Assembly: GCA_008636045.1 (NCBI GenBank)
Contig: SNRW01000051.1
Coordinates: 1 to 34,580 of the forward strand
Direction: 5' to 3'
DNA length: 34,580 nt
Origin: Streblomastix strix
Taxonomy: Eukaryota
Shown here: one piece after another, positions 28 to 34,580 of the stretch
Layout: each line of letters begins with the position of its first letter
Position numbering within the stretch: position 1 is the first letter of the stretch
The notes under the pieces: generated by a model
What the model was told of the DNA's origin: nothing
Databases searched by the model: none
What the model saw: only the letters and a program-made list of their open reading frames with translations
Translations under genes and position numbers: made by a program

Positions 28-1089
28 AGCAGTATAGAATGAAGAAGTTTGGCGTAACTTCAAAATCTTATTCATTATAATCAATTTTTCCACGATTTTA
101 GTACATACCCCGTCAATTTGCTATTTTCCTTAGAGCGGAAGCACATACATTAGTATGATTCCATTAATCGTAGGAAAATGCACAAATTGATGAAATAGAC
201 AAAGCGTGGATAAATTGATTATAATAAATATTAATTTGAACTTAGATGGATCCGCTCAGGAGCGACATCCATAATTTTATTTAATAAAAAATATTGTATA
301 AATTTTATGAACAATTTTCATAAGTGCAAAAATCTTAATTTTGCATGAATGTGAAAAACAGAAAAAAATATAATTTTTTCTCTACGCTTTGAGTTGAGTG
401 TATTATATCTTGAATTTTTAAAATTTATATTTTTATAAAGATTTAAATTTATTTTATATCATAATATTTCAGAAGCATCCATACGTGCCGATAAAAATTA
501 AAAAAATTAGAAATTCTCAATTTTAGCGAGTAATTTTATTTTATTATGTCATTTTCCAATAAAATTGAATAATAAATTTTATTTAATAAATAAATTGAAT
601 GGTAACTTTTTATTTTAGTTGAGATACGCGTGTATAATATGAAAAAAAAAATTAAAAAAAGATTTTCTTAGAAATATAGATTAAAAATATATATTTTTAT
701 TAGTGATTTACATTCAAATATTTAAAATTAAACAAAATAAATTAAATTAATAATAGTATTAAATGTATATCTTGCAAAAATCAAGAATTTCTTTTTTTGT
801 CAATTTTCATCGGCGCGAACGGCTGTTTAAGAAATATTATGATATAAAATAAATTTAAATATTTTAAAAAATATAAATTTTAAAAATTCAAGACATAATG
901 CACTCAATTCATAGCGTATAGAAAAAATTACATTTTTTTCTGTTTTTCACATACGTGCAAAATTAATATTTTTGCACTTATGAAAATTGTTCATAAAATT
1001 CTTACAATATGTTTTATTAAATAAAATTATGGATGTCGCTCCTGGGCGGAACCATCCACTTACGGCAAACATTCTTCTTCTGAGCAATG
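28..1089 (+). repeat. Left TIR of the Polinton (28-244 plus 1063-1089), interrupted by a foldback MITE
   Basis: 28-244 matches the reverse complement of the right end with ~11 mismatches in 217 nt by manual count. Similarity resumes after the insert (CGGCAAACATTCTTC...GAGCAATG). Confidence 0.93.
245..1057. mobile_element. Non-autonomous foldback/MITE-like DNA transposon with ~285-bp imperfect TIRs
   Basis: GATGGATCCGCTCAGGAGCGACATCCATAATTTT (245) pairs with AAAATTATGGATGTCGCTCCTGGGCGGAACCATC (1056), and the inverted match extends ~245-530 vs ~771-1056. ACTTA is duplicated at 240-244 and 1058-1062. The other two TIR copies show the empty site GAACTTAC. Confidence 0.9.
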
Positions 1090-1378
1090 ATAAAACCTTC
1101 GCAGCATCAATGATGCTAATTAATTAATAAAAATAAATTAATAGGGGTTTCACTTATTGACATTTAAATAATTTTTATGATATGTTTCCTATATGCGTAT
1201 TATATCACGTATATGATTTAACATAAAATATAGATTTGATGCTTATTTTTTCTTTGTTTCATTATTTTTAATTTCATTATTAAGTCATTAGTATTTTTAT
1301 TGTAATTTTTGTTCAAGATCTTTATTATATTCATTCATTTTTTTGTCCATTTTGAATAGATAACAAAAAATAAATGTA

Positions 1379-1996
1379 TCAATATAAATCAAAATCATTG
1401 CATTCCTATTACTCTTATTCTAATGGTTGTTCTTAAATGATTTATTATGGCTCCTATTAAATTTATTACGGCTCTTCCTTTTCAACTATCTATTTTGACT
1501 ATTTGTTTCGTTTTGCTTTTAATTTATATTTCTCTATTTGTTTGATAGCATCTAAATGCTATTGATTAATAAATGAATTTTTATTTCTTAATTTGACTAA
1601 TTCTTCTAAATCAAGTTGTGGATTAGTATAATTAATTTATGGAGTTTTTGATATTTTTACAACCCTTTTTCTAATTTATTTCTTTAATGGTTTTTCTCTA
1701 ACTTTGCTTATGGAATCGTCACTTTCAACTTAATCTTCGTTCTGTTCATAAGATATAAAATCTTCATCTTCTATTTATTTTTAAGATGCTTTTTAAACGT
1801 TTTTCTTTGGAGCAACCCCTCCTCTAGCTTATAACACTAATTTATTCTACTCTGTTTAAGTTAAATTTTTAAGTGTCTTTTTTCCTTCTTCGAACACTTT
1901 AATATCTTTATTAATTTGTATGACATATCCGTTGTCAAAGTATACAATATGTGTTCCATTCTCTATTAAATTCTTCAATACGTGTCGTAAGTCCAT
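1379..1996 (-). CDS. Polinton hypothetical protein, 205 aa, Lys/Gln/Glu-rich
   Basis: Open ATG-to-TGA frame in table 6: MDLRHVLKNLIENGTHIVYFDNGYVIQINKDIKVF...EEPQQIQQEPQQ...FDLY*. Confidence 0.75.
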
Positions 1997-2073
1997 TGGA
2001 ATAATTTTAAATTAAGAAAATGATAAAGGGCATAGAAAGTAATTAAATTCGCAAGTCAAAATCTAAAAAATAA

Positions 2074-2742
2074 ATGTCTGAGATTAAACGTAAAGAACTA
2101 ACTTATGAAGATAAAATTGGATTGCAACTGATCGATAAGGCTATCAGTAGGATTAAATCAATGCCAGCGGTTGATGAATCCATCAAGCCTAAAGAAAATG
2201 TAACATAAACTGATAATGAAATTATTACATCAACGCTTGAATAATTAATCCTAACAGAATAAAAAATTACTAAATATGAGTGTAAATATAATAAAGATAA
2301 ATATAAACAAATTGATAGAACAACAGCATAGGGTGAACCTGATGAAGTAGTTAAAAATACTTATCTTTCTCATCCAAATCTCGCTGTAATGAAATTCATT
2401 ATTAACTGTTTATGGAAATCGGTAACAACAAGGAAAAGAGGAGATGATTTCATATTCTCATCAGATATTTTTATTAAACTTTGTTCATTATTTACTTAAG
2501 AAAATGAAGATGACATTGAAATAATATTAGAAGAACAATTGATTTAGTCACATTCATGCATAGGAAAATCATATGAATAGAAAGTTTTGATTCGCGTGAT
2601 CTATGTATTAATTAAAAACGTTAGAATATCAGTTATTGATAATGTATTATTCAATTCTATTGAGAAACTGTATCGTGTGAACAAAGACTCTGTTCGTTCA
2701 TCTGATGCTCCTACATCAGAGATTACCAAAGATGATTTTTGA
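2074..2742 (+). CDS. Polinton hypothetical protein, 222 aa
   Basis: Open table-6 frame MSEIKRKELTYEDKIGLQLIDKAISR...YLSHPNLAVMKFIINCLWKSV...EITKDDF*, divergent from the previous ORF. Confidence 0.75.
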
Positions 2743-2791
2743 AATAATTATTTTAGATGTCTAATTTTTTACTATTTATTTATTTTTACCT

Positions 2792-4056
2792 ATAACCAAA
2801 ATTCTTTCACAATCCGAAATACTTAGAGGAAAATTGCTCTTGAAACCTTAAATTATCGCAAAGGAAATATGCGTTGAACCAATATATTAATGTAACGATG
2901 ATTTCTATTAACGAACAGTAAATTAATATGGTAAACCATACGATAAGCTATTAAAGCGTTATGGAAATAATCTATGGAATCCATAATTAATTTATATAAT
3001 GATCGAAAAAAGAAATAATGAACATATTGATGATACAATCAAATAGTATAACTAACAAATGAAGGAACTTAGTGATAGAACTAATCAGCTTCCAATATGT
3101 AACTTTACTGATGCTGAAGCAATTAAATTATATGAAATGAAACATGCAATTAACTATATGTAAGAACAAACAAAATATAATTAATACGGATAATGTGGAG
3201 TTAAAAATGAAGTTAATTGTATATAAACTACGTTTGATGATCGATTATTTTTTGCAATAAAAAGGATCAAAACTTAAGTGATTTAGATATATTTGATGAA
3301 GAAGAATAATCTATGTAATAAAAACAGGCAATTAAATTAATATAATTGTAGAAATAGTAATAAAAATAGATAAATGATAGGAATAATTTATTTTAAATCA
3401 TTGATTCAGAAATAATAATATACTTTAATTATTTGAGTTAATTCTTTAGAAATTCATTCGATTTTGTTAATTTGCATTCTGATTAAATTATAGGTGGAGT
3501 AAAGATATTTTTATAACCTATCATAGTTGGTAAAATTATTAAATAAGGTGAAACAAGTAATTAAATACTATTAGCTAATTGAGATATTACAGATAAGGAT
3601 TAATTAGATTAAGAATTTATTGAAAATGCACGTTATTCATCAATTGCTTATGGAATATATGAATCACGATCATGGAGCATATTAACAACATAAAATAGTA
3701 GAGTATATATTTCACTATAAATAACTCATTTTAATCCAGATACATTATGGTAATCAGGATATACTTTATTCCCAATCGTTGATAATGCTATAAAACCAAA
3801 ATTCAGTGGAACACCAACTAACATACCATTAAATGCAATAATATATGTGACTAAATAATCTAATAATCCAGTAGCATTGACTAATGTAGTTGCTATTGAT
3901 TATTACATTAATACTAATGGTAATGTTATAATTAATACATATTGTTCGTTTTGGCTACCTGATGGTTTTGCTATTTAAGAATGTGATTCATATGCTATTC
4001 ATAATTAGTCGGCTAGTCGACAAATTTAAAAATATACAAATGAATCCGATTAATGA
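2792..4056 (+). pseudogene. Decayed second fibre-like protein (coiled-coil N-part, fibre shaft motif, beta-rich C-domain)
   Basis: Frameshift near 3250 and in-frame TGA at 3580-3582 (LLAN*D, probably from GGA). The motif DQIIGGVKIF...KIIKQGETSNQILLAN(G)D resembles NQTITGVKTF...NEILLADG in the 6426-8438 protein. The start is uncertain (ATA at 2792 follows the TTATTTTT motif). Confidence 0.55.
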
Positions 4057-4184
4057 AACAATCATCTATTCTATAGAATAATTGAACTTTAATTGGTATG
4101 CTATCTTTAAACAATTTGGAAAGTAGCGATTAAATAAGGGTGCGAATCAAAGATATGCAAATGAAAAATAATTATTTTTGCTTT

Positions 4185-6129
4185 TCAACCAGCATTAAAC
4201 GTACTTCCTCCAATCTCACCAATACCGTCAATATTTAACACTTACTGATCAGGATTATTATCAAATGTAATTCGCATAAATGCATCACAAAAATAATGTA
4301 GCATTGGAGTAATAGATGCTTTAGTTGGATCAGGATAACTTCCCATAGCAATAAATTCTTTAAAGTCATTTCAGTTATATTTTTATTTATCTTTGTACTA
4401 TCTAATACTCATTTAGTCAAATTATCATGTAAAATAACTTATGTATTTGTTCTTACACCTAGTTTTGAAGAGTTATATCCTCGCACAAATGAATCATTAG
4501 TTGCCAATTTTTATACAAGCATATATTTGTTACGATATAGTGTTTTAGTAACTTTTGTCCCATCAAATAATATAGATATAGCAAATACATTTACATCTCC
4601 ACTTCCATAAAAACCATCTTTATCAGTGCAGTTTAAATTTTTAAATGTAAGTGAATGATACAAATCTGATGGGGCACTAACATCATTTTAATCAACGAAA
4701 CAATCAAACATTAATCCATTAACGGTATGTGTTAATGCTTCAAATGGTTAAGTAACTACATGTCTTTAATCAATAATTAAATCAAAATCATAAAAATAGT
4801 ATAGGATAAAACCAAATTGGATACTATGGCATGATAAATGTCATGAATAGTGATTTTATATTAGAGAATGACGTAATACTTTACATAGCACAACTTGTTT
4901 CAGTAAAACCACTAAATGGGAAATTTGATGATTAAGATCTGAATACTTAGGTAGGGAAATTTACTATTTTTTACTTTTTAATCATGTTAACTATTGCTTC
5001 ATCATTTTCAACATTAAAACATATGTTCTATATCTCCAATTTTTCAAATTTTGCATTGTTAATTTAACTGATACTATTCTATGGTCCTCTCTAATCATTA
5101 CCAGCATTTTACATATTAACTATTCGTAAATTAAATTTCTAATAAGAAAATACCCCATCAGCTGTAGGTTCTTTTAATAGATATACTATGTCGGGTTTCT
5201 CAGGTAGAATCATGTGATAAGCCAAGTGTTTGTTTTATATTGCATCTTATTTGTTAAGCCAAACTACCTTCAAATCCTATAGATAATCTTATATCCAAAG
5301 TTATAGAAATAGTGAAGCATAATTCCTAGTAATAACAGGAAATGAATTAAAGATTGAATTTAATTAGTTAAGATCAAGATCACCACTAAATGTAGTATCG
5401 AAGTGAATTTTAAAATGCCATGGAGTTGTATCACATTTTGCATCAATATCAAATAGAGGCATATCAATAAATATTCCACAATGATGTTTACCACTAATTA
5501 TGCTTTCTAGTGGAGAAACACTAACGCTATTGCTTGAATATAAATCACTCAAAGAATTAGAACTAATAGCAGCATTTTCTCTAGCATATATTGAAGTTCC
5601 CCATAATGCAGTGGCATCACGAATCAATTGAAATTGGCGAAATGGTCCACACGCAGTGGAGAATCTAAGCCAAAAACGTAATCGATCAGAATTATCAAAT
5701 CCATCAGCTTATTTTCCATAATACTTTTATGCGCTTTATTTCAAATTTTTTATAACAGGAGCTTATGAATCTACTTTACCATTGAAGTTAATTCTCTTAT
5801 TTGAATCATCATCTTCAATATTGGTTTCATTTAATTATATCGCGAAAGTATTTGCAGGAATGGTAATTGTCCAATTCACTTAGCATGTTTATACCATTGA
5901 ACACGTAGCAATTCCCCTTGCTCATAGAGGTGCTCTAGTATATTTTACTCCACTAGATGTTTGTTCATTTACTGGTTAATCGGAGAATTATTGCTTGGAA
6001 ATTGAAAATTATCCAGCATGAATAGTTAATGTTTTTAATACTTCACCTAATTATATATAGCCAGCAACGTAATCAGAGTGTTACATTTTTTTGCAAACGG
6101 GCTATATAATCACTAGATTTGAATGTCAT
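4185..6129 (-). pseudogene. Putative major capsid protein (divergent double jelly-roll), ~645 codons, disrupted
   Basis: Long beta-rich reading MTFKSSDYIARLQK...FWLRFSTACGPFRQFQLIRDATALWGTSIYAREN...MLHYFCDAFMRITFDNNPDQQVLNIDGIGEIGG, with several frameshifts and TGAs. The MCP call is inferred from size, composition and context, not from a search. Confidence 0.6.
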
Positions 6130-6195
6130 TTCATTAAAACAAAAATAACTGTACTTTGATGACGATAATGATAATAAATTTTATATTAAATCAAA

Positions 6196-6405
6196 ATGGG
6201 ATTCTTCTCTGGAATAACGAATTTTGGATCGAAAATTTTAGGCGGTGTTAAGATAGCGGCGTAATGGGTAGCATCAGTATTATAAAAAGTTTTATCAACA
6301 ATATCTGGTCCTGTTGGAATGATTCATCCAGCTATTGGTGGCGCATTAGGTGATGGAGCTAATTTAGCAGGTGTTGTTGATCGATTGGTAAATAAACGTA
6401 ACTGA
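6196..6405 (+). CDS. 69-aa amphipathic Gly-rich peptide, candidate membrane-penetration protein (adenovirus pVI-like)
   Basis: Intact ORF MGFFSGITNFGSKILGGVKIAAQWVASVLQKVLSTISGPVGMIHPAIGGALGDGANLAGVVDRLVNKRN*. It has an N-terminal Met-Gly and lies between the MCP and fibre genes. Confidence 0.8.
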
Positions 6406-6425
6406 TGCAATTTATTTTTGAAGAA

Positions 6426-8438
6426 ATGAATAACACATTATCGTAACAATAAATCCGAACAGTTAGATAGTTAATCACTAACGATATTGCTTACTTTATT
6501 CAATATTAGAATTTAGGAAATTCTAGTGGTGGAACGATGTCAAACGATGAATATCAATTATTCATAGATAATAACAATGCATTAGTATACACCGCTAACA
6601 ACTAAATCGTCGATGGAATAACATCAGATTACGCTTTAAAAATAAAATCAAATGGGCTATTAACGATAAATAATTTGAAAGTGATTAATTTTGATTTTGT
6701 TGCTTAGATTAATTAGTTGATTAATTAAGTGAATTTATTATAACAATCAATTGGAACAACTGAATAGGATATCACTGATATAAAAAATGATATTGATACC
6801 ATTAATTATGAATTATCAAAATAAACACATTTCAGAGGATATTATTTATTGAATGCAGATATATAAAATTTGCCTAATTTCGCTAATGGTGATTTTGCTT
6901 TTAGTGCTGAAAGTGGAACAGTTTGGATGTTTGATGCAGCTTGATATAATGGTGGAGATATTGTGCCTGATCAAGTTACACCAACTAATGATGCAACACC
7001 ATTATCTGATGGTACAGCAACTGCTGGAATTAGTACAGATTATTAACGTGGAGATCATGTTCATACATTAAATATAACATCTACTATTCCATCTAGTGAT
7101 TCTGCTAGTGGATCATTTGATACAATTAATTAATATGAAAGAAACGATCATTCTAATCCTCTTAATATAACAACTTCATTACCTCCACAAGATAGTACAA
7201 GTGAATCAGTTGGCACAACTAATTATTACGCTAGAAACGATCATTCACTTCCAATTAATATAGAAACTAATGCTTCAAATATTCCAATAGTTAATGGTGT
7301 TGGTGTTAATGGAACATCAGACGTTTACTCTAGACATGATCACGTTAATCCATAGAAATTGACATATGACGGAAATGTTACAGCAACTAAGTTCATTAAA
7401 ACTGGAAGATTAACTTCAGATGCATTATGTGTTAATGGTGATATAAAAGCAATATCAGATATTGTTAGTAATTATGTTTACTTAATAACTAACTAAACTA
7501 TTACTGGAGTAAAAACATTTGATTCATTTAAGAAGACTAATCATACAAATAATGAAATATTATTAGCTGATGGGACTACTAAAAATGCAGTTTTAGCTAA
7601 AATTAATTATTATATAACAACTACAGAAAAATATATCAAATTGAGTTAATTTATTCCTTATATTAATATAAATAATGTTTCGGTTGAATTTTACATTAAT
7701 TGTAGGTATGCTTTTGGATTATTGCAATTCAGTTAAAATTATACCACCGAAGGAATTAGCCAATACTCTTATCATTTAGATTCTAATACATTTTTTAAAA
7801 GGGCTTATATTTTATTTTAAAGGACAGGAACTACAGATTATGGTGAATTATGGTGTAATAAGAATGCATGGAATAATAGTGTTTAAATACAATTAACAAG
7901 ATAAAATACATTTCCAGATTTGATATCAAATGTATTAGATAGTGAAATGGTTGATGCTTTACCTACGGATTATTCAAATAAGTTTTCTTTATTCTCGAAC
8001 ATGTACTAATCACCATTTTAAATTAATCCAATAGCTGGAAATTTTAATGAAGGACTACATATTGCTAATACTTCAAGTAATATATGTTTATTTTCAATAG
8101 GTTGCGATCCCAATTCAAACACTGGTGCAATAGCTAATTAATGGTCATTAATTAGAAGATCTGATGGTGCATAAGTTATTACACTAACCGCAAATTAAAA
8201 TATTTGGAGTAAAAGATTACTAATGAGTGCTGATGGAAATACATTAACTTTCAATGGATCAGTTATTGCAGGAACTGGAGTAACAAATGGTGCAACTAAT
8301 GGCACGGTTAATTATTCTGCTGGTAATCCAATCTTATGAGGTTTAAATAGTGTTGGAACAGAAGGTGGATTCTATAGTGATGGAGCTAAAATATATTGGA
8401 GAGCACATCCATTAACATTAGGATTAGTTCCTCCATGA
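6426..8438 (+). pseudogene. Fibre/spike-like protein (670 codons) with phage tail-fibre-type repeats and two in-frame TGAs
   Basis: A single frame with a coiled coil, four YxRxDHxxP-type repeats (~7040-7355), a QTITGVKTF motif and a G/S/T/N-rich C-terminus. TGAs fall at 6942 (DAA*YN) and 8337 (PIL*GL), both plausible Trp sites. Confidence 0.75.
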
Positions 8439-8468
8439 ACACTTTGACTGATGTTTATTTTTACAAAA

Positions 8469-8927
8469 ATGGATAAACAATAAACCTAACCGATCAAACA
8501 ATTATTTAATGAATTAGATAAATATCACTTTAATGATATCGATACGAATAAAGTTACAATTGAAGCATTATAAAATTTGTAAAAGAATGATGTAAAAGAA
8601 AATATCCATTCATAACTCTAAGAATTAATGAGAATCAATAAAATGTTCACTAATCAATAGCAATAAATATAAAATATAAAGAAAATGGTAAATGAAGAAG
8701 ACTATAAAAATAAGTTATTTAATGAATAGGATAAATATATCAAAAATAAATATCTACTAATTAAAAAGTCATTAGATCTAAACAATTAACCATAAAAGAT
8801 AAAGAAATACATTATCTCTGAAGCTAGTGAAAAAGAAAAATAGATTTATAATTAATTTGTGAATGATGAATAATACAGTAACTTTGTCAATTATTATCAG
8901 CTTAATTTAAAATAATAAGATTGTTGA
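8469..8927 (+). CDS. Polinton hypothetical protein, 152 aa, helical and charged
   Basis: Open table-6 frame MDKQQTQPIKQLFNELDKYHF...NLKQQDC*, preceded by TTATTTTT. Confidence 0.65.
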
Positions 8928-9514
8928 TATATTAAATATATTTGATTATCTCTTCAATTTTATCTTACATTGGTTCTAACAAACAAAAACGTTATTTTAA
9001 TTGATCATACAATTATTTTTCTTTAATTTATAGATTATTTATCTCAATTAATGCTTCAAATATTTTGAATATTTCATACTCAGATGCATTATATTATAAG
9101 TCAATACTTCTTGATAAACTATATAATTGTTCCATTCCATTTAACTCAAAAAATTTATTTAGTGGGATTATTTAACATTTTAAGATAAAGGATATATCTC
9201 CAATTAGTTGCTAATTCTAAATCTTTATTGGCTATAGCTTCGTTCAAAAATGTTTAGATTTATTCTTCTTACAGCTATGACCAATGAATACGTGGTTAAT
9301 TCTTGTCCATTTTTCTTTTGTAAAAGAATTGTATGATGCAAATCGTTATATTTAATGGGACCAATGCCATATCAAAATAACTCCATAATGTTTTTACTAC
9401 ATTAGCGGTGTCTCAGAATTTCTCCGGTATGGATGCTGATATGATTGATGTTATAAAATTAACGCCATAGAACATGTAATTCATTATTCCCATGATCAGA
9501 GATAGTATATTCAT
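8887..9514 (-). pseudogene. Putative membrane protein with two N-terminal hydrophobic segments, disrupted
   Basis: MNILSLIMGIMNYMFYGVNFITSIISASIPEKF*DTANVVKTLWSYFDMALVPLNITICIIQFFYKRKMDKNQPRIHW..., with a TGA at 9413-9415 and a frameshift in the A-run near 9150. Confidence 0.55.
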
Positions 9515-9530
9515 TTCATTATTTTTGAAA

Positions 9531-10523
9531 ATGACATTATAAGAATTATATGAAATAACATTTACTAATCAAGATCTATTGAACGAATATAAAACTGCAC
9601 CATTAACGATGAATTCATTGTTCATTATTAATGGTAATCATTATATTGTTGAAGCTGTTGGAAGTGGTAAAACAATGTTACTGTGTAAGCTAATTGTGAT
9701 TTCTAAGAAAATCATTAATCCCTTCATATTAAACTTCTCGAATTACTGTGCAGATGAAACTATGGCATTAAACCTTAATAGTAAGAACATTTAATAAACG
9801 AATGTGACTTATGGAGAAGTAATGATATTTCTACCAGAATTTGATGAGATTAAATACTCAACTAAAGAGATGTATACGTGGTACAAGATGAATGAGTAAA
9901 AATTATCATACACTAGTGATTTCATTAAGCGAATGGAAGAGTAAATCTTATAAAATAATGAGATAAAAAAGAATGAAAAACCTAATGATTATCTTAATAA
10001 AATTGCTGAACTATTCAAAGAAAAAGTAATCAAAACCATTAACACATATAATTAACCAACCAAAATATTGAGATTCAATATTCCTGCACTAATTCAAAAC
10101 GTTAGTTACCAAAAGAAATTCAAAATTACCGAAGATGAATCTAATGCTGACATAAAAATAAAAAAAATACCTATATTAGAAAAAGCTTAATTACTCCATA
10201 CGTTAATGCTCTTCGATGATATTGGTTCTAATGCAGATATACAACGATTCAGTTCATAATTATCTAAAACAATAATGCATTTGGTTAGTGATTCAAATCA
10301 TAGTAAAAATACTATTTTCTTTATCGCTTAACGTCCAACTTATTTGTTCAAGACAGCGAGGATATTAACCCATGTAATTTGCTTAGGCGTTAATCTTGGA
10401 GAAAGTGATCTAAGATAAGTGTACGATGAAAATACTATATAAAATTTAGATTTTGATGAATTCCAATAATTGTATAATACATTAAAGAAATATGAGTTTA
10501 TCATATTGAATAAGTGGATTTGA
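9531..10523 (+). CDS. A32-like (FtsK/HerA family) DNA packaging ATPase, 330 aa
   Basis: Walker A YIVEAVGSGKT (9651-9674, first Gly replaced by Glu), Walker B LMLFDD (~10203-10220) and the SNH...TIFFIAQ motif. The frame is open to TGA 10521, and the original stop may be 10548-10550. Confidence 0.88.
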
Positions 10524-10554
10524 AAATTTGAGATTCTCAAAAATAAATGAAAGA

Positions 10555-13500
10555 TCAATTATCTTAAAATGAGTAATCCTTAGATTAAAGACCGAAAATA
10601 AACGGGCAACAACTCTAGTTCTCTAGTACGATGGCTTTTGTATGAATTCCGGTAATTCCGTTCTTTTCTATAGATAACTAGCTCATCTAATGATTCTTCT
10701 ATCCCAATCTCATATTAGTGCATTTTGTTATTTTTCCTTCATTAATGCAATCGACTATCTATGCTTTAGTGATTTTGTTAGTTTTCTAATTAACTCCTTT
10801 TAATTTTATTTTTGAATTGCCATTATAATTAGTTTCAATCATGTAATTTTTAGGAGCTAATGCAATCATTGATATTCCTTATCTTTCGATCGCTAATCCC
10901 AATATCTTCTTCTCATCATATACGTCACCTCTAATCGTGGGAAAGTAATATTTAGCATTATCATTATAAAATTCTCGATCATTAATTACAGCATTAAATT
11001 ACTAAGTAAAATCTTCATTTGGATTACCACTAATTGCCCAATAAGCTGAATCAGTATCTCCTTCAATAAAATGTATGCGATTCATATCTAAGCATTTATA
11101 CATGAAATTATATATGAAATTTAGATACCAATATTTAGCGTTATCCAATACAAAGAAAGCTACTTATAATGGTGTTTTACAGCTACAGTTTTCTGGATTC
11201 ATTTGTACAAGATAACTGTCTTCTGATATCTTTTGCTCATCCATGAACGCATTAGATCTAATTGCTCTTTCTGTCTACTTCTTATTCATTATTTTTACTT
11301 TATGATATTTCTCAGTGTTCATACCATCGCTGCCATATGAACTATTCATAACTATCTTAAAGAATTATTCTTATCCTTTATTTTCATCTAATTTTGCTTC
11401 AATCCTGTTTTTTGTAAATTCCTTAATAAATGAATTGAATTAATCATGTTTATTGAACAACACTATCTATTTCACATCATCTATAATAAAATGGCAATCA
11501 TCAATTAAGAACCATAGATAATATGAGCTAAATGCCATATATTCTCCCATCGTTGATGTAAGATTAGTTAGTTTCCTTTATTTTTGATCTGTCTTAACAT
11601 TATTGTTTTTCATATGATTAAACATATAACTACCGATAGTTCTTTCATCTGTTGTGAATTCATAATTCCTTAGAATTGGTGGGAAATTAATGTAATCGTT
11701 AATATAATTCTAATCAATGTGGCCTTTAACTTCTGCTATGAATAATTAGCCATTTTCTGTAAATCTCTTTTTGCTATTAATTATTCGCTATATTGTTTAT
11801 TTTGAATGGTCATCATTTCCCATAATCTTACCTGTCTATGATCCACACATATACATCTTATCATTAGTATACTTAATAAATTTATGTTGCTCTGATGACA
11901 TAACACTAGGATATAATGAATTGAAATCAACACCAACTACATGTGTTATTCGATGATCAGTTGTTAAAACTGTTACCTTCTTATTATCTTTATCATATTA
12001 GATACGTTTTATGAAATCAATTCCTGATCTATTAACTCGATGCATTACATTCGATAATCCACCTGTTATCCACTTTCTGACTAAATGATATACATCAATA
12101 TCTGTTAAGTTAGTTGGTAAACATCTTATCATACAATATTTACGTAATTATATGAACAATTTACCTATATTTTTATCTTTATCACTGCAGAAGCAATTAC
12201 AGTATAAACAACAGGGCTAAACATTATCTATTGAATGGCACTTTGAATTATCGATTCTATCTAATGTTGGCTTATTATTACATGTAAATTTACATCCACA
12301 AATGATGCAATTAGATTCATTGAATAATCGTTTGAAATATTCATAATCACTGTCTTTTACATTATTTTTTACATCTCTCTTTTTATGTTTATCTTGCTAT
12401 AGATATCCTTTCACTTTGCTCTACCAATATTGCTCAGTTAAATGAAATTTTTATGATTAATCTTCAAAATTAGGATATACTCCATTAATGTCAAAATCTT
12501 CATACGCTTTGGCATATTTGATAGCATTAGAGCATGCCGCCATACTCATAAAACTAAACATATCAATCTTATATTTAAATTGTAAGCTAATTAGAGTCAT
12601 TAATGGTTTGATCATTATATATGTATCTTACTCATTATAGAATTGTAGGTAATCCCATCTATTTTTAAATCGTTTTGCATCATCTAGATAAATCTAATAA
12701 TCCTTCTAACTAATCTTGGTTTTCTTTAATGATGAATTGAAATCTTCCATTGAAAATGGCTCTGATTTACTAAGTATTTCATTAACGTTATCAGTGTTGA
12801 AACATTCATCGGGAAATAATCCTTTTTTATCATCATATCCGTCACCAAAATCTTTAGCTGCCTATCTTAATTCCATTGGTTATAGATACGTTAACATATC
12901 AACAAATTTCACTTTCAAATTCAATTTTTTATGATTTACAATTATTAACTTTGCTGTTGATGAGCTACCAGTATAATTAATGATTGTCCAATCTTTACAT
13001 TACATTAATGATATAATTAATGATATATCAAATCTTGAGCTATTGAATCCAACTATTGGCACTTCAACTGAATTTGGAATTGTTATATCTATTGTCCAAG
13101 CCGCCGCTATTAGATATTAATTATCAGCATTAACTTATTCTGCTTCTTTAAATAATTAATTTAACCATTAAACTATGAAATTTGATCCATCCTATTAACT
13201 AAAGAAGATTTTCTTAATCCCTTATTTGTTTCGAATAGTTGATGCAACTGATAAAGGAAATAGTTCATACATTTAATAACTTGATTTACCAAACTTTTTA
13301 TTAACGATTTTAGGTACTGTTTCAAGATCATATGTGATGAAATATTGTGTAGGTTTATATTCATTTTCTCTACCATTTGCTAATAGATACTGAAAAGTCT
13401 TATTGTGCATGATATGTGGACAATAAGGTTTTTAGATATAATCCAGTTTAACTTTCTTAATAATTTTTCCACCATTATTCTCACATTTAATAGTGTGTTT

Positions 13501-15144
13501 CTCATAGTCTCTTGAATAATTTTTATCTTTAGGATCGAATGCTTTTAAGTTACAATGTGGGCAAAATTTAAATCCAGTTAATGCTTATTTATTAGCTATA
13601 GCAAATGCATGAGAAATCTTATTTTCCTCCCATTCTGATTCAACAACTAATATATCAATTGTCTTAATTACTTCATTTTAATCTTCCTATTAATACATTA
13701 TTTACATTTCTCTATAATAATTCTTATGTTCATTATCGTAATAGTAAATGTCTTAGTTAATTTTTAACTTTTGCGATACTATATTAGCGTATTTAGTTAT
13801 ATCTAATCAATCAAATACCTACAATAAATCAGTCATTTTTCAACTCTTAGAATCGAATGGTATTACTAATACTTAAACTAAATAATCTCTAATAATGCTT
13901 ATAATTGATTCATTTCTATAACTTTTCTCCTATGTATCAGGATGTAATGCTTTTGTTACTGCTGCTATATAGCAATTGTTATTATTTCCAGTATTTTTAT
14001 ATATCACATTTTTGTGATCATTATAGTGAAAATCGATTAATTCTTTCATTCTAGCTCAAACAATTTACGGTTAAAGATTAAATGTCTTGATTAACATTGA
14101 ATAGATAGCTATGAATCTTTACTTTGTACTATCTATTATATAACTTTACATATTAATTATCTCAGCTTTAATATATTGTTAAAACTCTTCAATAACATCT
14201 TAATTTTATATAACTTTAGGAGAATGTTCTTATATACGCGTATCTCCAGGTAAAATATATATATTCAACTTAAATTTAATCATTCTAATCATGCCTAAAT
14301 TCTTCATAAATGACTCCAAAATTGAATTGTTTCTTGAACGCTTAATGGTGTTATGCTTCATAAACTTCATCTACAAACATCTCAATAATTGATAATGATT
14401 AGATAACATTGTTATAATGTAATTGATTTAATTGGCCCCGCTATTCATCAATTTAATTTATTGTTCGTTCACGATTGAAACCTGTTCTTGCACTATCAAC
14501 TTTATCAATGAATTATTCCATATTCTCAGGTTGAAAATACAATATAAAACCTGCATCATTTTCTATTTAATTAACGTCTTTTCCATTATCCTGATTAATT
14601 TTATCTTTAATCTCTTTATTTTATTGTGCAATTATTTGGTATTGAATATTCGCTTCTTATTCTTCTTCCATTATTCTTCTAGCTTATTCCTATTCTTCTA
14701 TGATATAATTAGTCCAGAAATCATTAGCTTATTGTTACTCTTATTATTAACGATATTCCAATAAATCCTATTTATATTGGTTCTAATGATAATGAGTTAA
14801 ATCTTAATATAATTATTGGTTCTATTCTTATATCTCATCATAGTAGTTATCAGCTTATTGTTGCTATTATTCTCTACGATATTCCTATAAATCTTAATCG
14901 TATTGATTCTATTTGAAATGATTAATCATATCTCTTGCTTATACGACTTACATATTGTATTAATGTACTTATTTTAGATGTGCTTTCAATTCATAATAGT
15001 TACTTCTTCCTTATTTATTACAATCAATCTTGTTTAAATATTCATTGAGTTATTCTTTATGTTAATCTATTTTAATGATTCATTGACGTTTTTGTTGTTG
15101 ATCTTGATCAGCTTAACAATCTCCGCTTTCTTCAGGTAAACCAT
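10555..15144 (-). pseudogene. Protein-primed family B DNA polymerase: decayed N-terminal terminal-protein/vOTU-like region plus intact exonuclease-HNH-polymerase core (10555-13806 open)
   Basis: Motifs ExoI YDLET, ExoII GFNSSRFD, ExoIII FYNEQD, motif A DFNSLYPS, motif B KIVMNSSYG, motif C EGDTDS, PKNY and KLKGV. There is no TGA in 10555-13806, but stops occur at 13807, 13840 and 14056 and frameshifts occur further upstream. Confidence 0.95.
14726..14935. repeat. Two-copy 126-bp-period tandem duplication in the pPolB N-terminal region
   Basis: AGCTTATTGTT...CGATATTCC.ATAAATC occurs at 14726 and 14852, encoding QDLLEYRQQQEQQQANDF and DLQEYRREQQQQQADNY. Confidence 0.7.
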
Positions 15145-15191
15145 TTGTTAAAAATAATAACCAAATATAGAACAATAATAATTTAGACGCC

Positions 15192-16662
15192 TCATTAAAA
15201 TTATACCTCTAACAATAAATTATTATACATATCTATATATTACATAGGTATTTTTCTTCCAAACTTATCATATAATGTAAACACTAACGTTTTGTTCTAT
15301 CCTATTAAGCATTATTGACTCATCATATTCTATCCCCATAGTACTGGTGCATCAATCAAATTTTGTTTAAAGCATACATTAAAGAACCCATTACCACCAA
15401 CTGATTACATAGTTATTCCTTATAATTGATTTGATTCACAAATTATTAACATTTATGGATACTCTAGAAAATTCCCTATATATTGACAGAATATTGGTAA
15501 ATCAACTTTTAAGCTTTCACTATTATGTTTCATTTAATGGAACCATACTTCTAGATCAATTTACTTAATTGCTGATGCTAAATTAACAAATTAATTAGCG
15601 CTATTTTCATTCAATCCTTTATATAGATCTTATCCACCAACTAATTGAACATACAGATTTGGTGAAACTATTATACGATTTGCCAACCAATAAATGTTAT
15701 TTTATTAACAATAATCAGTCACAACTTATGGTATAAATTATCCATAATAATTAGTTCTTCCATCAGCTGTATAAACATCTTACCATTCGCCTATAGATTA
15801 TGCAGGTAATGGACTGATAATTCTAACTGGAAATGTGTTAATATTATTAATGATTTATTACATTGTTTATTGTTATACATTAATCGGTTAAGTATCAGAT
15901 GTAGTAAATATTCCATTAGTATTTATAACAACTTACTTACAAAATAGATATCTAATTGATGGACCATTCCCTTTTGTAAAATGTTTTGGCTAAATAGATG
16001 TAATATAATTATTTGATGTAGGGCAATATAATGGTATTAATCTAATCATTCGATATAACTCATTAACTGTGGAATCTAAGATCCAATAATGATAAAGAAT
16101 TGCATCGATTCTAAGATTAATGCAATTGATCGCTGAATTCACTAAATCTTATCCATAATTCTAGTTTAATGGGAATAGATTATTCTAAAGTTTTTATACA
16201 TGTTCATTCATTGAATTATTGAAGCAAATTGCGCCGCTATTCAAAGTTGATTATGCTCTAAAATATTTCTCTGTTGTATCTGTAAAATTATCATATTAAG
16301 TTAGTGTTATGTATAGCAATTATGAAGTATATTTATAGCCCAGAATTGTTTGATCACTAATATATGCATTATTTAGAGCTGTATTCAAATTAATACGAAT
16401 TGGTTGTAGTCTATCTAGTAATTAGCAATGAAACAGATCTTCTCCTATCAATTGTTTGAAATAGGTTTTCCTTGAATAAGTTGATACTATATTATGCTAT
16501 ATTTCTATATATAGTCGTTATTCAAGTAATATGTTAAATTAATTGTTATGTTATTTATACTATTAACTTAAAACTTTATCAACCGCTAGGGATAGTTGCC
16601 TATCATTTTATATAATCCTTATCTGAATCTTAATTGATAATTTGTAAGCCAATATTAGTCAT
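15192..16662 (-). pseudogene. Putative minor capsid (penton, single jelly-roll) protein, ~490 codons, N-terminus disrupted
   Basis: The C-terminus TLVFTLYDKFGRKIPMQYIDMYNNLLLEVQFQ* fits the hxhxLxDxxGRx...hxLxhxF pattern of Polinton/PLV pentons. TGAs and frameshifts occur in the first ~55 codons. Confidence 0.65.
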
Positions 16663-16692
16663 TTTATTAAAAATAAATTAGATCAACATCTT

Positions 16693-17061
16693 TCATTTAA
16701 ATACTATATCAATTTCATTGTTGCTGATTAGCTATTTTCTGAAGAAATTTCAATAATTTCTTTTAATTAATCCATCTTGAGGTGTTTGTTATATTAATTT
16801 AGTATAAATCTCATTTCTATCTCAGGATCATTCTTTGTAGCTACTGATACCAGCTAATTCAGAAACATTGAATAGACCATGAATTCTTCTCCTCTTATCC
16901 GTTAGGCTAGCCGCTTCGCAGTTATTTTTGCTATTATTTTTATTTCGAATAATATTATCAATTCATTAAGGCAATTATCAATAAAATACTTGAAGCGATT
17001 ATCAGTACATCTAAGATTGCATTGTATGTCATTTGCTAATAACTAAAATTATTATTAACAT
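16693..17061 (-). pseudogene. Small hypothetical protein (~120 aa), frameshift at the start
   Basis: Open stretch LANDIQCNLRCTDNRFKYFIDNCLNEL...KNDPEIEMRFILNQYNKHLKMDQLKEII...LIVFK*. The ATG at 17061 is out of frame with it. Confidence 0.5.
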
Positions 17062-17068
17062 TAATAAA

Positions 17069-18224
17069 ATGTCTAAAAAAGAGGAATAGTAAGAATAAGA
17101 ATAAAGGATTATAAAGTATCGTAAAAAGGCTGGTAAAAAGGCATAAAATGTAGAAAAATACATTACCTTAAGTTGAGAATATAAATTATTTCATGACATT
17201 AAGATAGCCATTTTAATTTAGAGGTAGTGTAGTCAGACAATAATAAATATAAAAAGTACCGATATTTTATCATAATTAGGCAAATATTAATTTGTTTAAA
17301 GTAGACTTGGAAAAATATAAAAATAATAATTAATTGAGTAAATTTAATAAAGAGATTAAGAAATTACAAAAGCTGAAGCAAATGCTGCAATTTTTGGACA
17401 TAAGTCTACAACAGCATAGTAACGAATATATGGCTCATATAACGGATATGATTTGATAAATGATGCAAATTAAACAAATGATATTATTTTTATATGGCCT
17501 AGATCTATAAGCTGGAATCGATAATAGATTAGCTAATTAAAATTATTTAATAAATATTAGTGCACGAATAAGTGTAGTAAACTAAGATATAGGATCTAGA
17601 TAACTTCCAACTGCTCCAAATCATAGTATTGATGATAGTTAAGAATAAATCAGGCGGTAGTTTGCTGGAGAACCATCTGTAGCATATAGTGATATTAAAT
17701 CAGATGGTGAACTTAGGGAAAAAGATTATCCTGATAATTAATCAACAAACTCAGTGCCTAATTATTATAGCTATTAATATAATGATAATCAGCCGTTTAA
17801 TTATCCTTTAATTTAATAAACTGATTTTGCTCCACCACTTACAATTGCAGAAGTGGAATCAGAAAATAATCATAATAGATGCATAAAAGGATAATATTTA
17901 CTTCTTAGTGGCTAAGAAATGAATAAAAACATGTAATATTTAGGAGGATTAGATTGATTATTAAATCCAGTAAATAAATACTATGGAAAAACACCATATA
18001 TACCAAAACCAATTGACTATTATCTATAAGATCGCACATTAACTGTAAGATAAAGAAAACGATACTTAGACAAAGAAGAACAATTAAATAAACCCAAGCC
18101 AAAAATAAACTACATTAGAGCAGGTGAAATGACTAAATAAGTTGAAGCATAAGGAAAATTGAAAAAATAAACAAGAAGAAGGAAATCAAAGTCTCCTATT
18201 AAAAAAAAGTCAAAGAAACATTGA
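17069..18224 (+). pseudogene. Decayed hypothetical protein with basic N- and C-termini (possible DNA-binding core protein)
   Basis: Reads MSKKEEQQEQEQRIIKYRKKAGKK...KKQTRRRKSKSPIKKKSKKH*, with internal TGAs and frameshifts. The function is inferred only from charge. Confidence 0.5.
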
Positions 18225-18229
18225 AAGTA

Positions 18230-18469
18230 TCATTAAAGTTTCAATAAATCAAGTATCTAAATTAAAATATCATCTGATATAATGTTTTTACTTAATATAT
18301 CGATTATCGTTGATTAATCATTTGAAATTTATTGCTTAAATTATTTTTACTTAAAACATTATCTTTTCTTAGCTTCTCCACGTTATTTCTTAGCCATTTC
18401 ATATGCTTCTTATTCAGTAAAATATTTCTTAGGTCAACCAACTTTTTAAGTTACTTATTTTATTTGCAT
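18230..18469 (-). pseudogene. Small AT-hook-like DNA-binding protein
   Basis: MQIKQVTQKVG*PKKYFTEQEAYEMAKKQRGEAKKRQ...LLKLQ*. The TGA at 18434-18436 sits where Arg would complete GRPKK. Confidence 0.55.
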
Positions 18470-18508
18470 ACTTTGTTCACTTTCTATTTATTTACCAAGA
18501 AAAAATAA

Positions 18509-19669
18509 TCATTAGAGTTTAAATGTTCTCTTATATTTTTCTTTTAATGTTTCAATACTATTTGCAACGATATTTGTGTAATATATTGGAACTTCTACAA
18601 TTTTAATATCCTAATACGGTTTCTATAGTTCACATACAGCATTTGCATGCTCATATCGAATAAAAGTAGCTATTTCATTAAATTATATACGATATTTTTT
18701 TAATCCATGAGCTGTCTTTTTCAAATCAAGATGTATAGTTATTATATTACCTTTCTTTAGATCTAATAGATTATCTTTATTTTATAATTCTTTAACATCA
18801 GCTAATTCCTTCATTTTTTATCTAATATATATTCCTTCAAAATCTTCATTCTAATTTACTACATTAGGAGAGAATTTTTATTTAAAAGCATTATGTTTTG
18901 CGTTATTGTAATCATCAACTACCTATTATAATTACTTTTTAATAGCCAATAATTAAGGATCATTTTCAAACGCATCCCTAATCGTTCTAACTACTGAATC
19001 AACTACTCTATTTTTATTAATGAAAGGAGATGAATTATAGAAGTATTTTATACCAGTTTCGTGAAGATATTACTTAATCTTTTGACTTCCCACCGTTGAT
19101 TCGCCATCTGATCTAATGTTACTAACAATCTGATTTGACTTAAGTAATCTTAAACATCTAAATAGTTCATTTGCTGATTTATCTTTGATTGGAAATACTA
19201 CTAAATATTTAGTGCTAATATTAATACAAAATAGATAATGCTAAATTATTTTATTAATTGTTGGATGCATTATAAATATTACATCAATTTCCCAGCTCCA
19301 TAATTCTGTTGAGATGTATGGACGTTTATACTTCTTTAATGGTTTCAATTTAATATCTTACACTATATCGGTTTTATTCTTAACTTTACTGCTAAATGGG
19401 TTCTTAATTTTAGTTGGTTCCTATTAACTTTTTGATTTTTTTAAGGATTAACGTTTGATTTTATTCGTTCAGCATGATATTTTTAGAAATTATCAAGATA
19501 AAACTTATATTATTAAGAAATAGTTTTATCTTCGAATTATTCCTCTAAATTATTGATAGTGAATTACTTTTTAAAATACAAAATTCAAATTCTTAATGAA
19601 ATCCACTAAATTAATTTTATCAACTTTGAACGCTTTGCCATCTAAAAATTATATAATTTATTTTTACAT
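18509..19669 (-). pseudogene. Retroviral-like (rve / c-integrase) integrase, frameshifted
   Basis: Motifs WEIDVIF (D 19283-19285), YLFCINISTKYLVVFPI, IRSDGES (D 19106-19108), NRVVDSVVRTIRD (D 18998-19000) and YNNAKH. Frameshifts occur in the N-terminal part. This agrees with the 6-bp TSD. Confidence 0.88.
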
Positions 19670-19810
19670 TTATTTTATGTAATTATTATTGAAAATAATC
19701 CTTTCAAAAAATTTTAAAAATAATTGTTTGGAATTTCAAAACATTAAATAAGACATTATAATTAATTTAATATAATTTATTTAAATTGGATTATTTTTAT
19801 TATTGCTTTT

Positions 19811-20000
19811 GTCGCTGGGGTCGTAGCATAGGTGCTGAGACACCGAAACTACGGCTTAGGTGGATACGTTCGAATCCCGCTATAACCAATGTTGGATGAC
19901 ATTGAGGAGCATCCGAACACATCAAAAGTACGGATTCCTAACATCACAGCTGTGCCTGAGTTGAGGGTTGTGGCTGCAGCCTCCAACAATCATGGTTTTT
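19811..20000 (+). ncRNA. Putative RNA polymerase III-transcribed structured RNA (~190 nt) with a tRNA-like 5' domain
   Basis: A 51% GC island (91/180 nt) in very AT-rich DNA. It has an A-box-like TAGCATAGGTG (19824-19834), a B box GTTCGAATCC (19868-19877), several stems and TTTTT at 19996-20000. Confidence 0.65.
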
Positions 20001-20030
20001 ATTAAATTTTTTCATTAAATATTTTTAATA

Positions 20031-20988
20031 CAGTCAGGCGATGTTTTTCGTTATTCGTTAGCATTTTGGTTAAATTCAAATGTTTAATTTTGCGAAGACA
20101 TTACAATACTCATCGAATTTCTGTTTTACTTCATAATATAAACCCTTATTACAATAACTTTTGACACAAAACTAAGATAATTCGCTGATACGAGCGGAAT
20201 TTCGCAGATCTACAATTTGCTCAGTAACTTCCCAGATACTTCGTTTTTTTACATTTAACAATCAATAATTTTATTATTTGCATAATTACATAATATACAT
20301 ATTAAAATTATAACAATTTTACAACCAATACACTTGAACAAACAATCAAGAATTTTGGATAATTTGACTTGCAAATTTTGATAGTGCCAAAGCACAATTG
20401 CAGTTCAAACTATGAATGAATGCGAATTGTATAAGTTGACATTATTATATATTAATACTTATCAGAATTATTACTTTTTTATCTTTCAGAATCCAAAATG
20501 ATGGTTGTTTTTGCCGTCAATGCAACCTTTTAGCTTTGCAAGGTTTGTTGCCATCCACTTTTAAAAGATTATATTCATATAAAACACTTTTTATCTACAG
20601 ACATGTTCAAAATTGGAACGATACGAATTGGAGTTGGATGAAATTTTAATAAATTATACTATTCTAGCGATCTACCCAACCAATTTCACCCAAAATCATA
20701 ATTTATGTAGTTTTAATTTTTTATTTTTGTATTTATATTTTTATTTTGTGTTTAAGTACCGTTTTTTATATAAACTTTTTTTTAAATTTATTTTCGTTTA
20801 AAATCGTCGCTTATGGCAGATTCAATAATACAATTTAAGTTTAAATACATTTTTCAGCAAATTTGTTCAATTTATCGTTTCAATTTTTCATTGGTATTAA
20901 AATATTTTCTGAAATTAGCACGTATTTGGTTTTTTTGGAGTGGACTAGTAAAAAAAGCTAAAGAATAACGAAAAACGTCGCCTGACTG
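20031..20988. mobile_element. Tc1/mariner-type non-autonomous element (958 bp) with TA TSD
   Basis: TA|CAGTCAGGCGATGTTTTTCGTTATTCGTTAGC ... GCTAAAGAATAACGAAAAACGTCGCCTGACTG|TA. The TIRs are ~32 bp with 2 mismatches, and no transposase motif was recognised inside. Confidence 0.9.
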
Positions 20989-21402
20989 TATTTTTAACTA
21001 GAAAATCGTTAACTATTGTATTTCTAATTACAAATCAAATTTTATTTAATATTTCTATGTAATTAATTATTTCATATAATTTAACCATAAAATCAAAACA
21101 ATTGAACTATCATGCATGCTACAAAACAAAGTTTAATAAAAACATTAACTTTTTTCGCCAACTCCTCTTATATTTATTTTACTAATTAAATAGTAACACA
21201 GAAAAATCATAAGGATTAACGGTATAATTACTATACACCATTTACTATAACGGTTTGCTGTAATCATAAACGCATTTGAATATTTCTCTGTAGTCGCACA
21301 CTTAGATTAATTAAATACATTGGCGCTATGGATTAGCGTTTATTTATTCATGATTCACATCAGTGTTGTGGATTAATGAATATATGAACGCTTATTCACT
21401 AG

Positions 21403-21643
21403 CACTGCTCTGAAGAATGTTCGTCGTAAGTTCAAATCAATATTTATTATAATCAATTTATCCACGCTTTGTCTATTTCATCAATTTGTGCATTTTCCTA
21501 TGATTTGTGGTATCATACTAATGTATGTGCTTCCGCTCTAGGGAAAATCGCAAATTGACGGGGTATGTGCTGAAATCGTGGAAAAATTGATTATAATAAA
21601 TAAGATTTTGAAGTTACGCCAAACTTCTTCATTCTATACTACT
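21403..21643 (-). repeat. Right TIR of the Polinton (~240 bp)
   Basis: Reverse complement of the left TIR, ending ...CTATACTACT and followed by the TSD TATGTA. Confidence 0.95.
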
Positions 21644-34303: not shown

Positions 34304-34580
34304 AGTAGTATAGAATGAAGAAGTTTGTGGTAAGTTCAAAATCGTATTTATTATAATCAATTTACCCGCGATTTTGAACTTTTTTCGTCAATTTGCAAAA
34401 ATCCCTAGAGCGGAAGCACATACATGTGTATGGTTCCATTAATCATAGGAAATTGTACAAATTGATGAAATAGAACAAATGTGAATAAATTGATTATAAT
34501 AAATATGGATTTCGAACTTACCGCAAACATTCTTCAGAGCAATGTTATTAATTAATAAAAAATAAATTATTGAGGGTTAG
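34304..34580 (+). mobile_element. Left terminus (TIR) of a second, related Polinton running off the window
   Basis: Starts AGTAGTATAGAATGAAGAAGTTTG and is colinear with the TIR but more diverged. Beyond the TIR it resembles the left subterminal sequence at ~1118-1150 (ATTAATTAATAAAA..ATAAATTA..GGGTT). Confidence 0.88.

Follow-up and report, generated by a model that had tools for sequence, protein, structure and literature searches.

Adenoviruses belong to the same broad virus lineage as Polintons. Their VA RNA is described, in the available part of one account, as having an internal box A and box B, a U4 end, a length of about 160 nt and a proposed tRNA ancestry (PMC7589676). The available text of a second account describes RNA polymerase III (Pol III) RNAs other than tRNAs from a few vertebrate viruses; among these viral Pol III RNAs are the EBERs, of which EBER1 binds L22 via three stem-loops, and the MHV68 TMERs, which are tRNA-pre-miRNA chimeras (PMC4378190). 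PLVs and virophages carry genes for tRNAs, including tRNA-Arg, and for other Rfam RNAs, and for the 8,300 Polinton-like genomes scanned in that study, the sections available to us list Rfam and ARAGORN classes only (PMC12220804). Our own literature search, conducted mostly without subscription papers, returned no description of a Polinton carrying a Pol III RNA from outside Rfam. The locus described here is like VA RNA, the EBERs and the TMERs in its promoter, in its size and in how it ends, yet it belongs to none of these groups.

The window analyzed is a stretch of 34,580 nt from Streblomastix strix (contig SNRW01000051.1), which contains a GC-rich island within a Polinton/Maverick element (Table 1). 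The best explanation of this island, to which we assign a rough probability of 0.55, is that it is a conserved part of a Polinton family and likely encodes a hairpin-chain RNA of about 185 nt, made by host Pol III and acting as a protein decoy or scaffold. We regard the island as the gene of a structured RNA, conserved within a family of protist Polintons and probably transcribed.

Table 1. Positions of the predicted RNA gene, its parts and the surrounding element in the window.
Feature	Position	Strand	Remarks
Polinton/Maverick, Streblomastix-type oxymonad (code 6), decayed copy	28..21643		TIRs, TSD, PolB, integrase
Protein-primed family B DNA polymerase (PolB) with endonuclease VII-like insert	10555..13806	-	PF03175; 82-89% to S. 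strix proteins
rve integrase gene, divergent from island	18509..19669	-	Likely ATG at 19669; in-frame stops; profile and protein matches
AT-rich spacer (11% GC) common to integrase and island	19670..19810		Also in sister contigs
Predicted Pol III RNA gene, about 185-190 nt	19811..20000	+	5' end placed from GC edge and A-box position
Predicted 5' helix H1, 15 bp	19812..19863	+	19812-26/19849-63; 5 G-U pairs, 4x4 internal loop, apical H1b
A box TAGCATAGGTG	19824..19834	+	
Predicted apical hairpin H1b	19831..19844	+	Sister loop CUGCCA
B box GTTCGAATCC	19868..19877	+	44 nt after A-box T
Predicted hairpin H3	19887..19904	+	P about 0.98; sister loop U-GGCA-G (GNRA)
Predicted hairpin H4	19906..19938	+	
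Predicted hairpin H5, 5' half	19942..19951	+	7 extra letters after 19951 in some sisters finish short hairpin; X3 and X1 loose ends
Predicted 3' hairpin H6	19960..19987	+	Sister loop U-GGCA-G
T5 terminator	19996..20000	+	T6 run next at 20007-12
MITE-like insertion, 41-nt TIRs, TA flanks	20031..20988		Just 3' of terminator, outside RNA unit

The sequence-only reading from which this work started had placed the island inside a Polinton, and the structure of the surrounding element bore this out. Several features by which a Polinton/Maverick is recognized were present, namely, long TIRs (219 nt, 26-244/21427-21645, 95% alike), AG...CT termini, a 6-bp TSD (TATGTA at 22-27 and 21644-49), a protein-primed PolB and an rve integrase, with which the island is arranged head to head. 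The AG...CT consensus ends are what we take to be a Polinton/Maverick trait. Residues 458 to 538 of the PolB correspond to an endonuclease VII-like domain (PHROG 1035, E 9e-13), and the best matches of the integrase were to S. strix proteins (50% and 66%). Walker A/B-like motifs were seen by eye at 9288-10523; the ATPase and capsid candidates had no Pfam or PHROG support. Almost none of the ORFs in the window are long in the standard code, and they are long in NCBI table 6. S. strix carries endogenous viruses of this kind that use the same code, according to the part of the report available (PMC10120064). Part of the window DNA was contained in four of the seven termite-gut runs listed, with a best share of 0.26. 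The copy in the window is decayed, as judged from the in-frame stops in its integrase and from two foldback insertions (245-1056 and 20031-20988).

The island, which had been picked out for its GC content of 51%, proved to be the GC maximum of the window (51% against 26%). It is the most GC-rich 180-mer (0.511; runner-up, 0.40; mean, 0.264; sd, 0.049) and lies between flanks of 11% and 3% GC. The A-box-like motif, B box and T5 run that had been read from the letters were all found where they had been placed. The standard tRNA A-to-B spacing is 45; an A and B box pair at a tRNA-like spacing occurs once in the window, and when the island was shuffled 20,000 times with dinucleotides preserved, 0.07% of the shuffles contained such a pair (chance 7e-4). 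Before the terminator, there is no T4 on the + strand and one on the - strand, a weak indication given that 65% of the shuffles also were without T4. The island therefore has the sequence features of a type 2 Pol III gene, that is, internal A and B boxes and no T4 ahead of a terminator of at least four T's. The AT-rich spacer is likely to comprise the integrase promoter together with the landing region of TFIIIB. A sigma-70 promoter scan of the DNA gave chance-level results, which are irrelevant to a eukaryote.

Sister copies of the locus were obtained as contigs, all of them short, from termite-gut runs (X1 to X6), X1 and X2 belonging to separate studies. The region 19400-20100 was matched by 528 contigs from X1, 81 from X2, 8 from X4 and 9 from X6, and the region 19775-20030 was matched by 60 from X1, 8 from X3, 7 from X2 and 0 from X5. 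The X4 contigs span the integrase start and none lies on the island, and X6 supplied just AT-rich scraps, from which absence of the island does not follow. No X1 contig, of the 60, reached 99% identity with the window, indicating that they represent other copies; the sisters are only about 10% diverged. Sister cover extended from the integrase through the spacer and the island and ended about 25 nt beyond the T-run, and 8% (X1), 2% (X2) and 24% (the 8 X3 contigs) of the aligned sister sequence ran on unlike the window. Among the loose ends listed (11 of 20), none with a foreign flank was found at the 5' edge of the island or at the T-run. Since the sister contigs share the integrase side and both flanks, the island moves as part of the element and is unlikely to be a recently dispersed SINE. 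The synteny with the integrase by which the sequence-only reading had proposed to tell the two apart was thus present in the sister copies, and there was no sign of dispersed copies among the sister contigs.

Some low-depth, more diverged contigs match at the 5' end of the integrase and then again in the island, while the intervening sequence fails to align. In one of these, a skip of 209 bases is bridged by 207 letters of the record; in one diverged contig, H1 failed to align. A contig of depth 1815 retains the spacer and the island, matching 19660-19827 (16 differences and 2 gaps), and departs from the window slightly within the integrase coding region at its start. Its 30 loose letters, inspected by eye, keep the reading frame and look like the N-terminal part of a divergent integrase (P0010). 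This suggests, as a hint only, that linkage of the island spans integrase subtypes. Summed contig depth, which is not a measure of copy number, was several- to tenfold higher at the 5' end of the integrase than on the island, so that many integrase-bearing copies may lack the island or carry a version less than 80% alike. The island may be confined to some Polinton subfamilies.

Variants among the sisters were compared with the window letters using 40 of the 130 variants for 19400-20100 and the 28 for 19775-20030. At 13 positions, the window letter differs from nearly all of the sister depth, and X1 and X2 agree in this; 12 of these near-fixed differences came from the 19775-20030 comparison, and one (19828) came from the 19400-20100 comparison only. 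The B box is constant in the sisters save for an A/T difference at its degenerate position, 19874 (N59). The sole substitution in the A box among the variants listed is at 19828, likewise a degenerate position, and the loose end of one contig has an extra T in this box. The T5 run has another letter at 19996 in a single X3 contig, of depth 2. At 19471, within the integrase stop codon 19469-71, most of the sister depth has a different letter. We also noted six double substitutions of adjacent bases between window and sisters (19510-11, 19558-59, 19637-38, 19838-39, 19858-59 and 19896-97), which suggest error-prone copying or assembly error.

The predicted fold of the whole 190 nt was modestly more stable than that of shuffled sequences (z of -1.4 to -1.7), and the 5' 55 nt, a region picked post hoc, gave a z of -3.6. 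In the model, the RNA is a chain of hairpins (Table 1). Of the 15 pairs of H1, 14 form in the window copy and all 15 form with the sister letters; 5 of the 15 are G-U and can pair on the + strand alone, which favors an RNA over a DNA cruciform. Five stems had been proposed from the letters. Their inverted repeats are present, but most of that fold was unsupported: an acceptor-like stem (19819-27/19879-87) had a pair probability of about 0 in the window and lost pairs in the sisters, a stem at 19890-98/19910-19 had a pair probability of about 0 even in the window copy and also lost pairs in the sisters, and the GGAT/ATCC stem was broken in 468/703 of the sister depth.

Introduction of the 13 near-fixed sister letters added three pairs to the hairpin-chain model and removed none; for the stems proposed earlier, four pairs were lost, one was kept and one was gained. 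No two-sided compensatory changes within stems were found among the sister variants, and the pair gains, being one-sided, are a sign that the window copy has decayed. The 18 bases of three loops contain five of the 13 window-only changes (P 0.006, post hoc). Sister polymorphisms lie on paired positions in 4 of 13 cases, compared with 94 of 184 positions that are paired, a deficit that is not significant; two of the four break a pair (19888-19903 and 19906-19938), each at the depth of one contig. One sister variant has a shortened H6 in which the inner stem and loop are kept.

In the sisters, the CUGCCA loop of H1b is the exact complement of the two UGGCAG loops of H3 and H6, and this suggests a predicted kissing-loop contact. 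With sister letters, the pairing 19833-42/19969-78 (H1b-H6) rises from 7 to 10 of 10, and the pairing 19835-40/19893-98 (H1b-H3) rises from 2 to 6 of 6. The complementarity was spotted post hoc and could be the product of an internal duplication. Two further details of the sister sequences were observed. The sister G at 19828 makes the internal loop of H1 (19827-30/19845-48) read GUA/GAA, which we take to be the core of a loop E/sarcin-ricin motif. The 7 extra X3 letters in the 19945-19960 region are GTGATGA, with CTGA 4 nt on (GTGACGA in the X1 variant); GTGATGA...CTGA is presumably a box C/box D-like pair, which could form a kink-loop.

The likeness to VA RNA asserted in the sequence-only reading holds for the internal A and B boxes, the U-run end and the similar size. 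It does not extend to the fold, since the terminal stem of VA RNA is absent (maximum pair probability between the first and last 25 nt, 3e-4 in the window copy), as is its central GGGU-ACCC stem (the island has GGGT at 19818 and 19965 and no ACCC). VA RNA is one long rod, whereas the island would give a chain of short hairpins with no Rfam match, and the VA RNA target PKR has no known counterpart in the host of the island. EBV EBER1 and EBER2 are similar in size and have several stem-loops, and EBER1 provides a model for decoys with repeated loops. They have no sequence match to the island and, unlike EBER2, the island has no above-chance complementarity to the TIRs or genes of its own element (the longest antisense match is 12 nt, and matches of at least 12 occurred in 29/100 shuffles). 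With the MHV68 TMERs, as they appear in the available text of PMC4378190, the island shares a tRNA-type head, a hairpin region of about 110 nt and a U-run. In contrast to a TMER, its head is not a cloverleaf, so that release by RNase Z is unlikely, and its 3' hairpins of 7 to 11 bp are too short for a pre-miRNA. The RNA genes of PLVs and virophages were found by Rfam and ARAGORN, whereas the island is remodelled and invisible to both.

Searches for the identity of the RNA gave no known family, as had been anticipated. There were 0 Rfam matches on the island at E<=10, and another Rfam scan gave four weak matches, all far below the gathering score. The earlier view that this is not a canonical tRNA was upheld, with no ARAGORN call, the acceptor-like stem at a P of about 0, a broken T-like stem and no anticodon stem by eye. 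Rejected in the same way were tRNA-Sec (the 9/4 fold has no anticodon arm), SRP RNA, RNase P/MRP RNA and snRNA (no Rfam match), and ribozymes (no Rfam match; hammerhead-like words are in the wrong order by eye). Queries with the integrase and PolB found 0 loci in the metagenome_contigs and viral_contigs collections, and island patterns, one of them with window-only letters, found 0 in viral_contigs and 0 in genome_contigs. The 61 metagenome matches to a relaxed island pattern were set aside as chance (best blastn E of 2.7, 0 tRNAs, none in AT-rich DNA), and a phage blastn search with the island yielded just 6 records at E 2-8.

Under the preferred reading, that of a conserved Pol III RNA gene, TFIIIC would bind the internal boxes and put TFIIIB on the AT-rich spacer, and Pol III would initiate near 19811 and terminate in the T5 run. 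The transcript would escape tRNA processing, because the B box lies outside any conserved T arm and an acceptor stem is lacking. It would then fold into H1, a single-stranded linker containing the B box, and H3 to H6, with the CUGCCA loop pairing with one UGGCAG loop within or between molecules. Taken jointly, transcription by TFIIIC and Pol III, avoidance of tRNA processing and the hairpin-chain fold are moderately probable, somewhat better than an even chance. An abundant, compact RNA might titrate a host RNA-binding factor of defense or translation, as VA RNAs and EBERs do; this function as a protein decoy or scaffold is proposed tentatively, by analogy with those RNAs and from the repeated loops. 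A captured tRNA gene is the probable ancestor of the unit, and the CT-ACG-G at 19849-54, at the would-be anticodon loop, leads us to guess at a tRNA-Arg(ACG) ancestor. The fullest form of the proposal is possible but doubtful. It holds that the island encodes a purpose-built Polinton Pol III RNA, remodelled from a tRNA gene, whose complementary loops dock to give a decoy or oligomeric scaffold, and which is an independent counterpart of VA RNA, of a class overlooked when thousands of Polinton-like genomes were scanned with Rfam and tRNA tools. If true, Polinton-type elements use RNA tools too, and the route from a captured tRNA gene to a VA-like RNA becomes testable in adenovirus relatives. 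The combination of a GC island, A and B boxes and a T-run provides a search image for other elements.

A tRNA-spaced A/B head joined to an unrelated body is also the anatomy of a tRNA-derived SINE. An old SINE of this type, or a tRNA-like host gene, could have been inserted once in an ancestral Polinton and carried as a passenger, its transcription being incidental; a single ancestral insertion likewise predicts common flanks, and the divergence of the sisters is low enough (about 10%) to accommodate it. The sequence-only reading had noted neither an A-tail nor a TSD. The island indeed has no A-rich or simple-repeat tail, but it is bracketed by a 9-nt direct repeat (19794 and 19996), as a SINE would be; that repeat is at chance level (12-18%) and makes no convincing TSD. 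The constant flanks, the fixed place in the element and the lack of foreign flanks among the listed loose ends at the island edges also differ from what a SINE would show. Moreover, the 51% GC has been maintained between AT-rich flanks, the island still aligns where the spacer has ceased to, and the B box is kept. We consider a passenger origin unlikely.

Conservation of the island might instead reflect a role mainly in cis. TFIIIC and TFIIIB would sit some 140 nt away from the start of the integrase and modulate the shared promoter or insulate the integrated element, with the RNA produced incidentally. Chromatin boundaries can be formed by tRNA genes and B boxes, the B box shows the strongest conservation of all the motifs, and the head-to-head arrangement of island and integrase, close to the right TIR, is constant. 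The 110 extra GC-rich bases, the strand-specific G-U helices and the twin GNRA loops with their complement are left unexplained, and this makes a role in cis quite improbable. The same loops raise another reading, that of DNA signals acting on the displaced single strand while the element is excised, packaged or replicated by protein priming. Replication of Polintons proceeds by strand displacement, and three hairpins have the same six-base spacer (two on the + strand and one on the - strand), in that the sister H1b read on the - strand has a loop identical to those of H3 and H6 on the + strand. Such a role is very unlikely, as the G-U pairs are strand specific, the A and B boxes and the terminator would be superfluous, and the opposite end of the element has no second copy.

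Several features of the neighboring DNA were recorded along with the island. The TIRs of the MITE-like element begin CAGTCAGG, and its TA flanks are presumably Tc1/mariner-like; an X4 contig matches the end of this element, which is therefore probably dispersed. The foldback element at 245-1056 has arms of 286 nt (88%) and sits in the left TIR, which is shorter than the right TIR owing to this insertion; the right TIR matches another TIR over 21392-21643. A low-complexity repeat protein with recurring DHxH motifs, fiber-like by eye and with no family match, is encoded at 6381-8339 (+). Outside the element, 22483-33678 (-) contains two very long host ORFs of 1772 and 1958 codons (code 6) in the same frame, with no Pfam match; they are split by one TGA at 27802-04 and represent an adjacent gene pair or a read-through. 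Finally, a related Polinton starts at the right end of the window; its TIR, at 34304-34555, is 83% alike to the right TIR of the first element.
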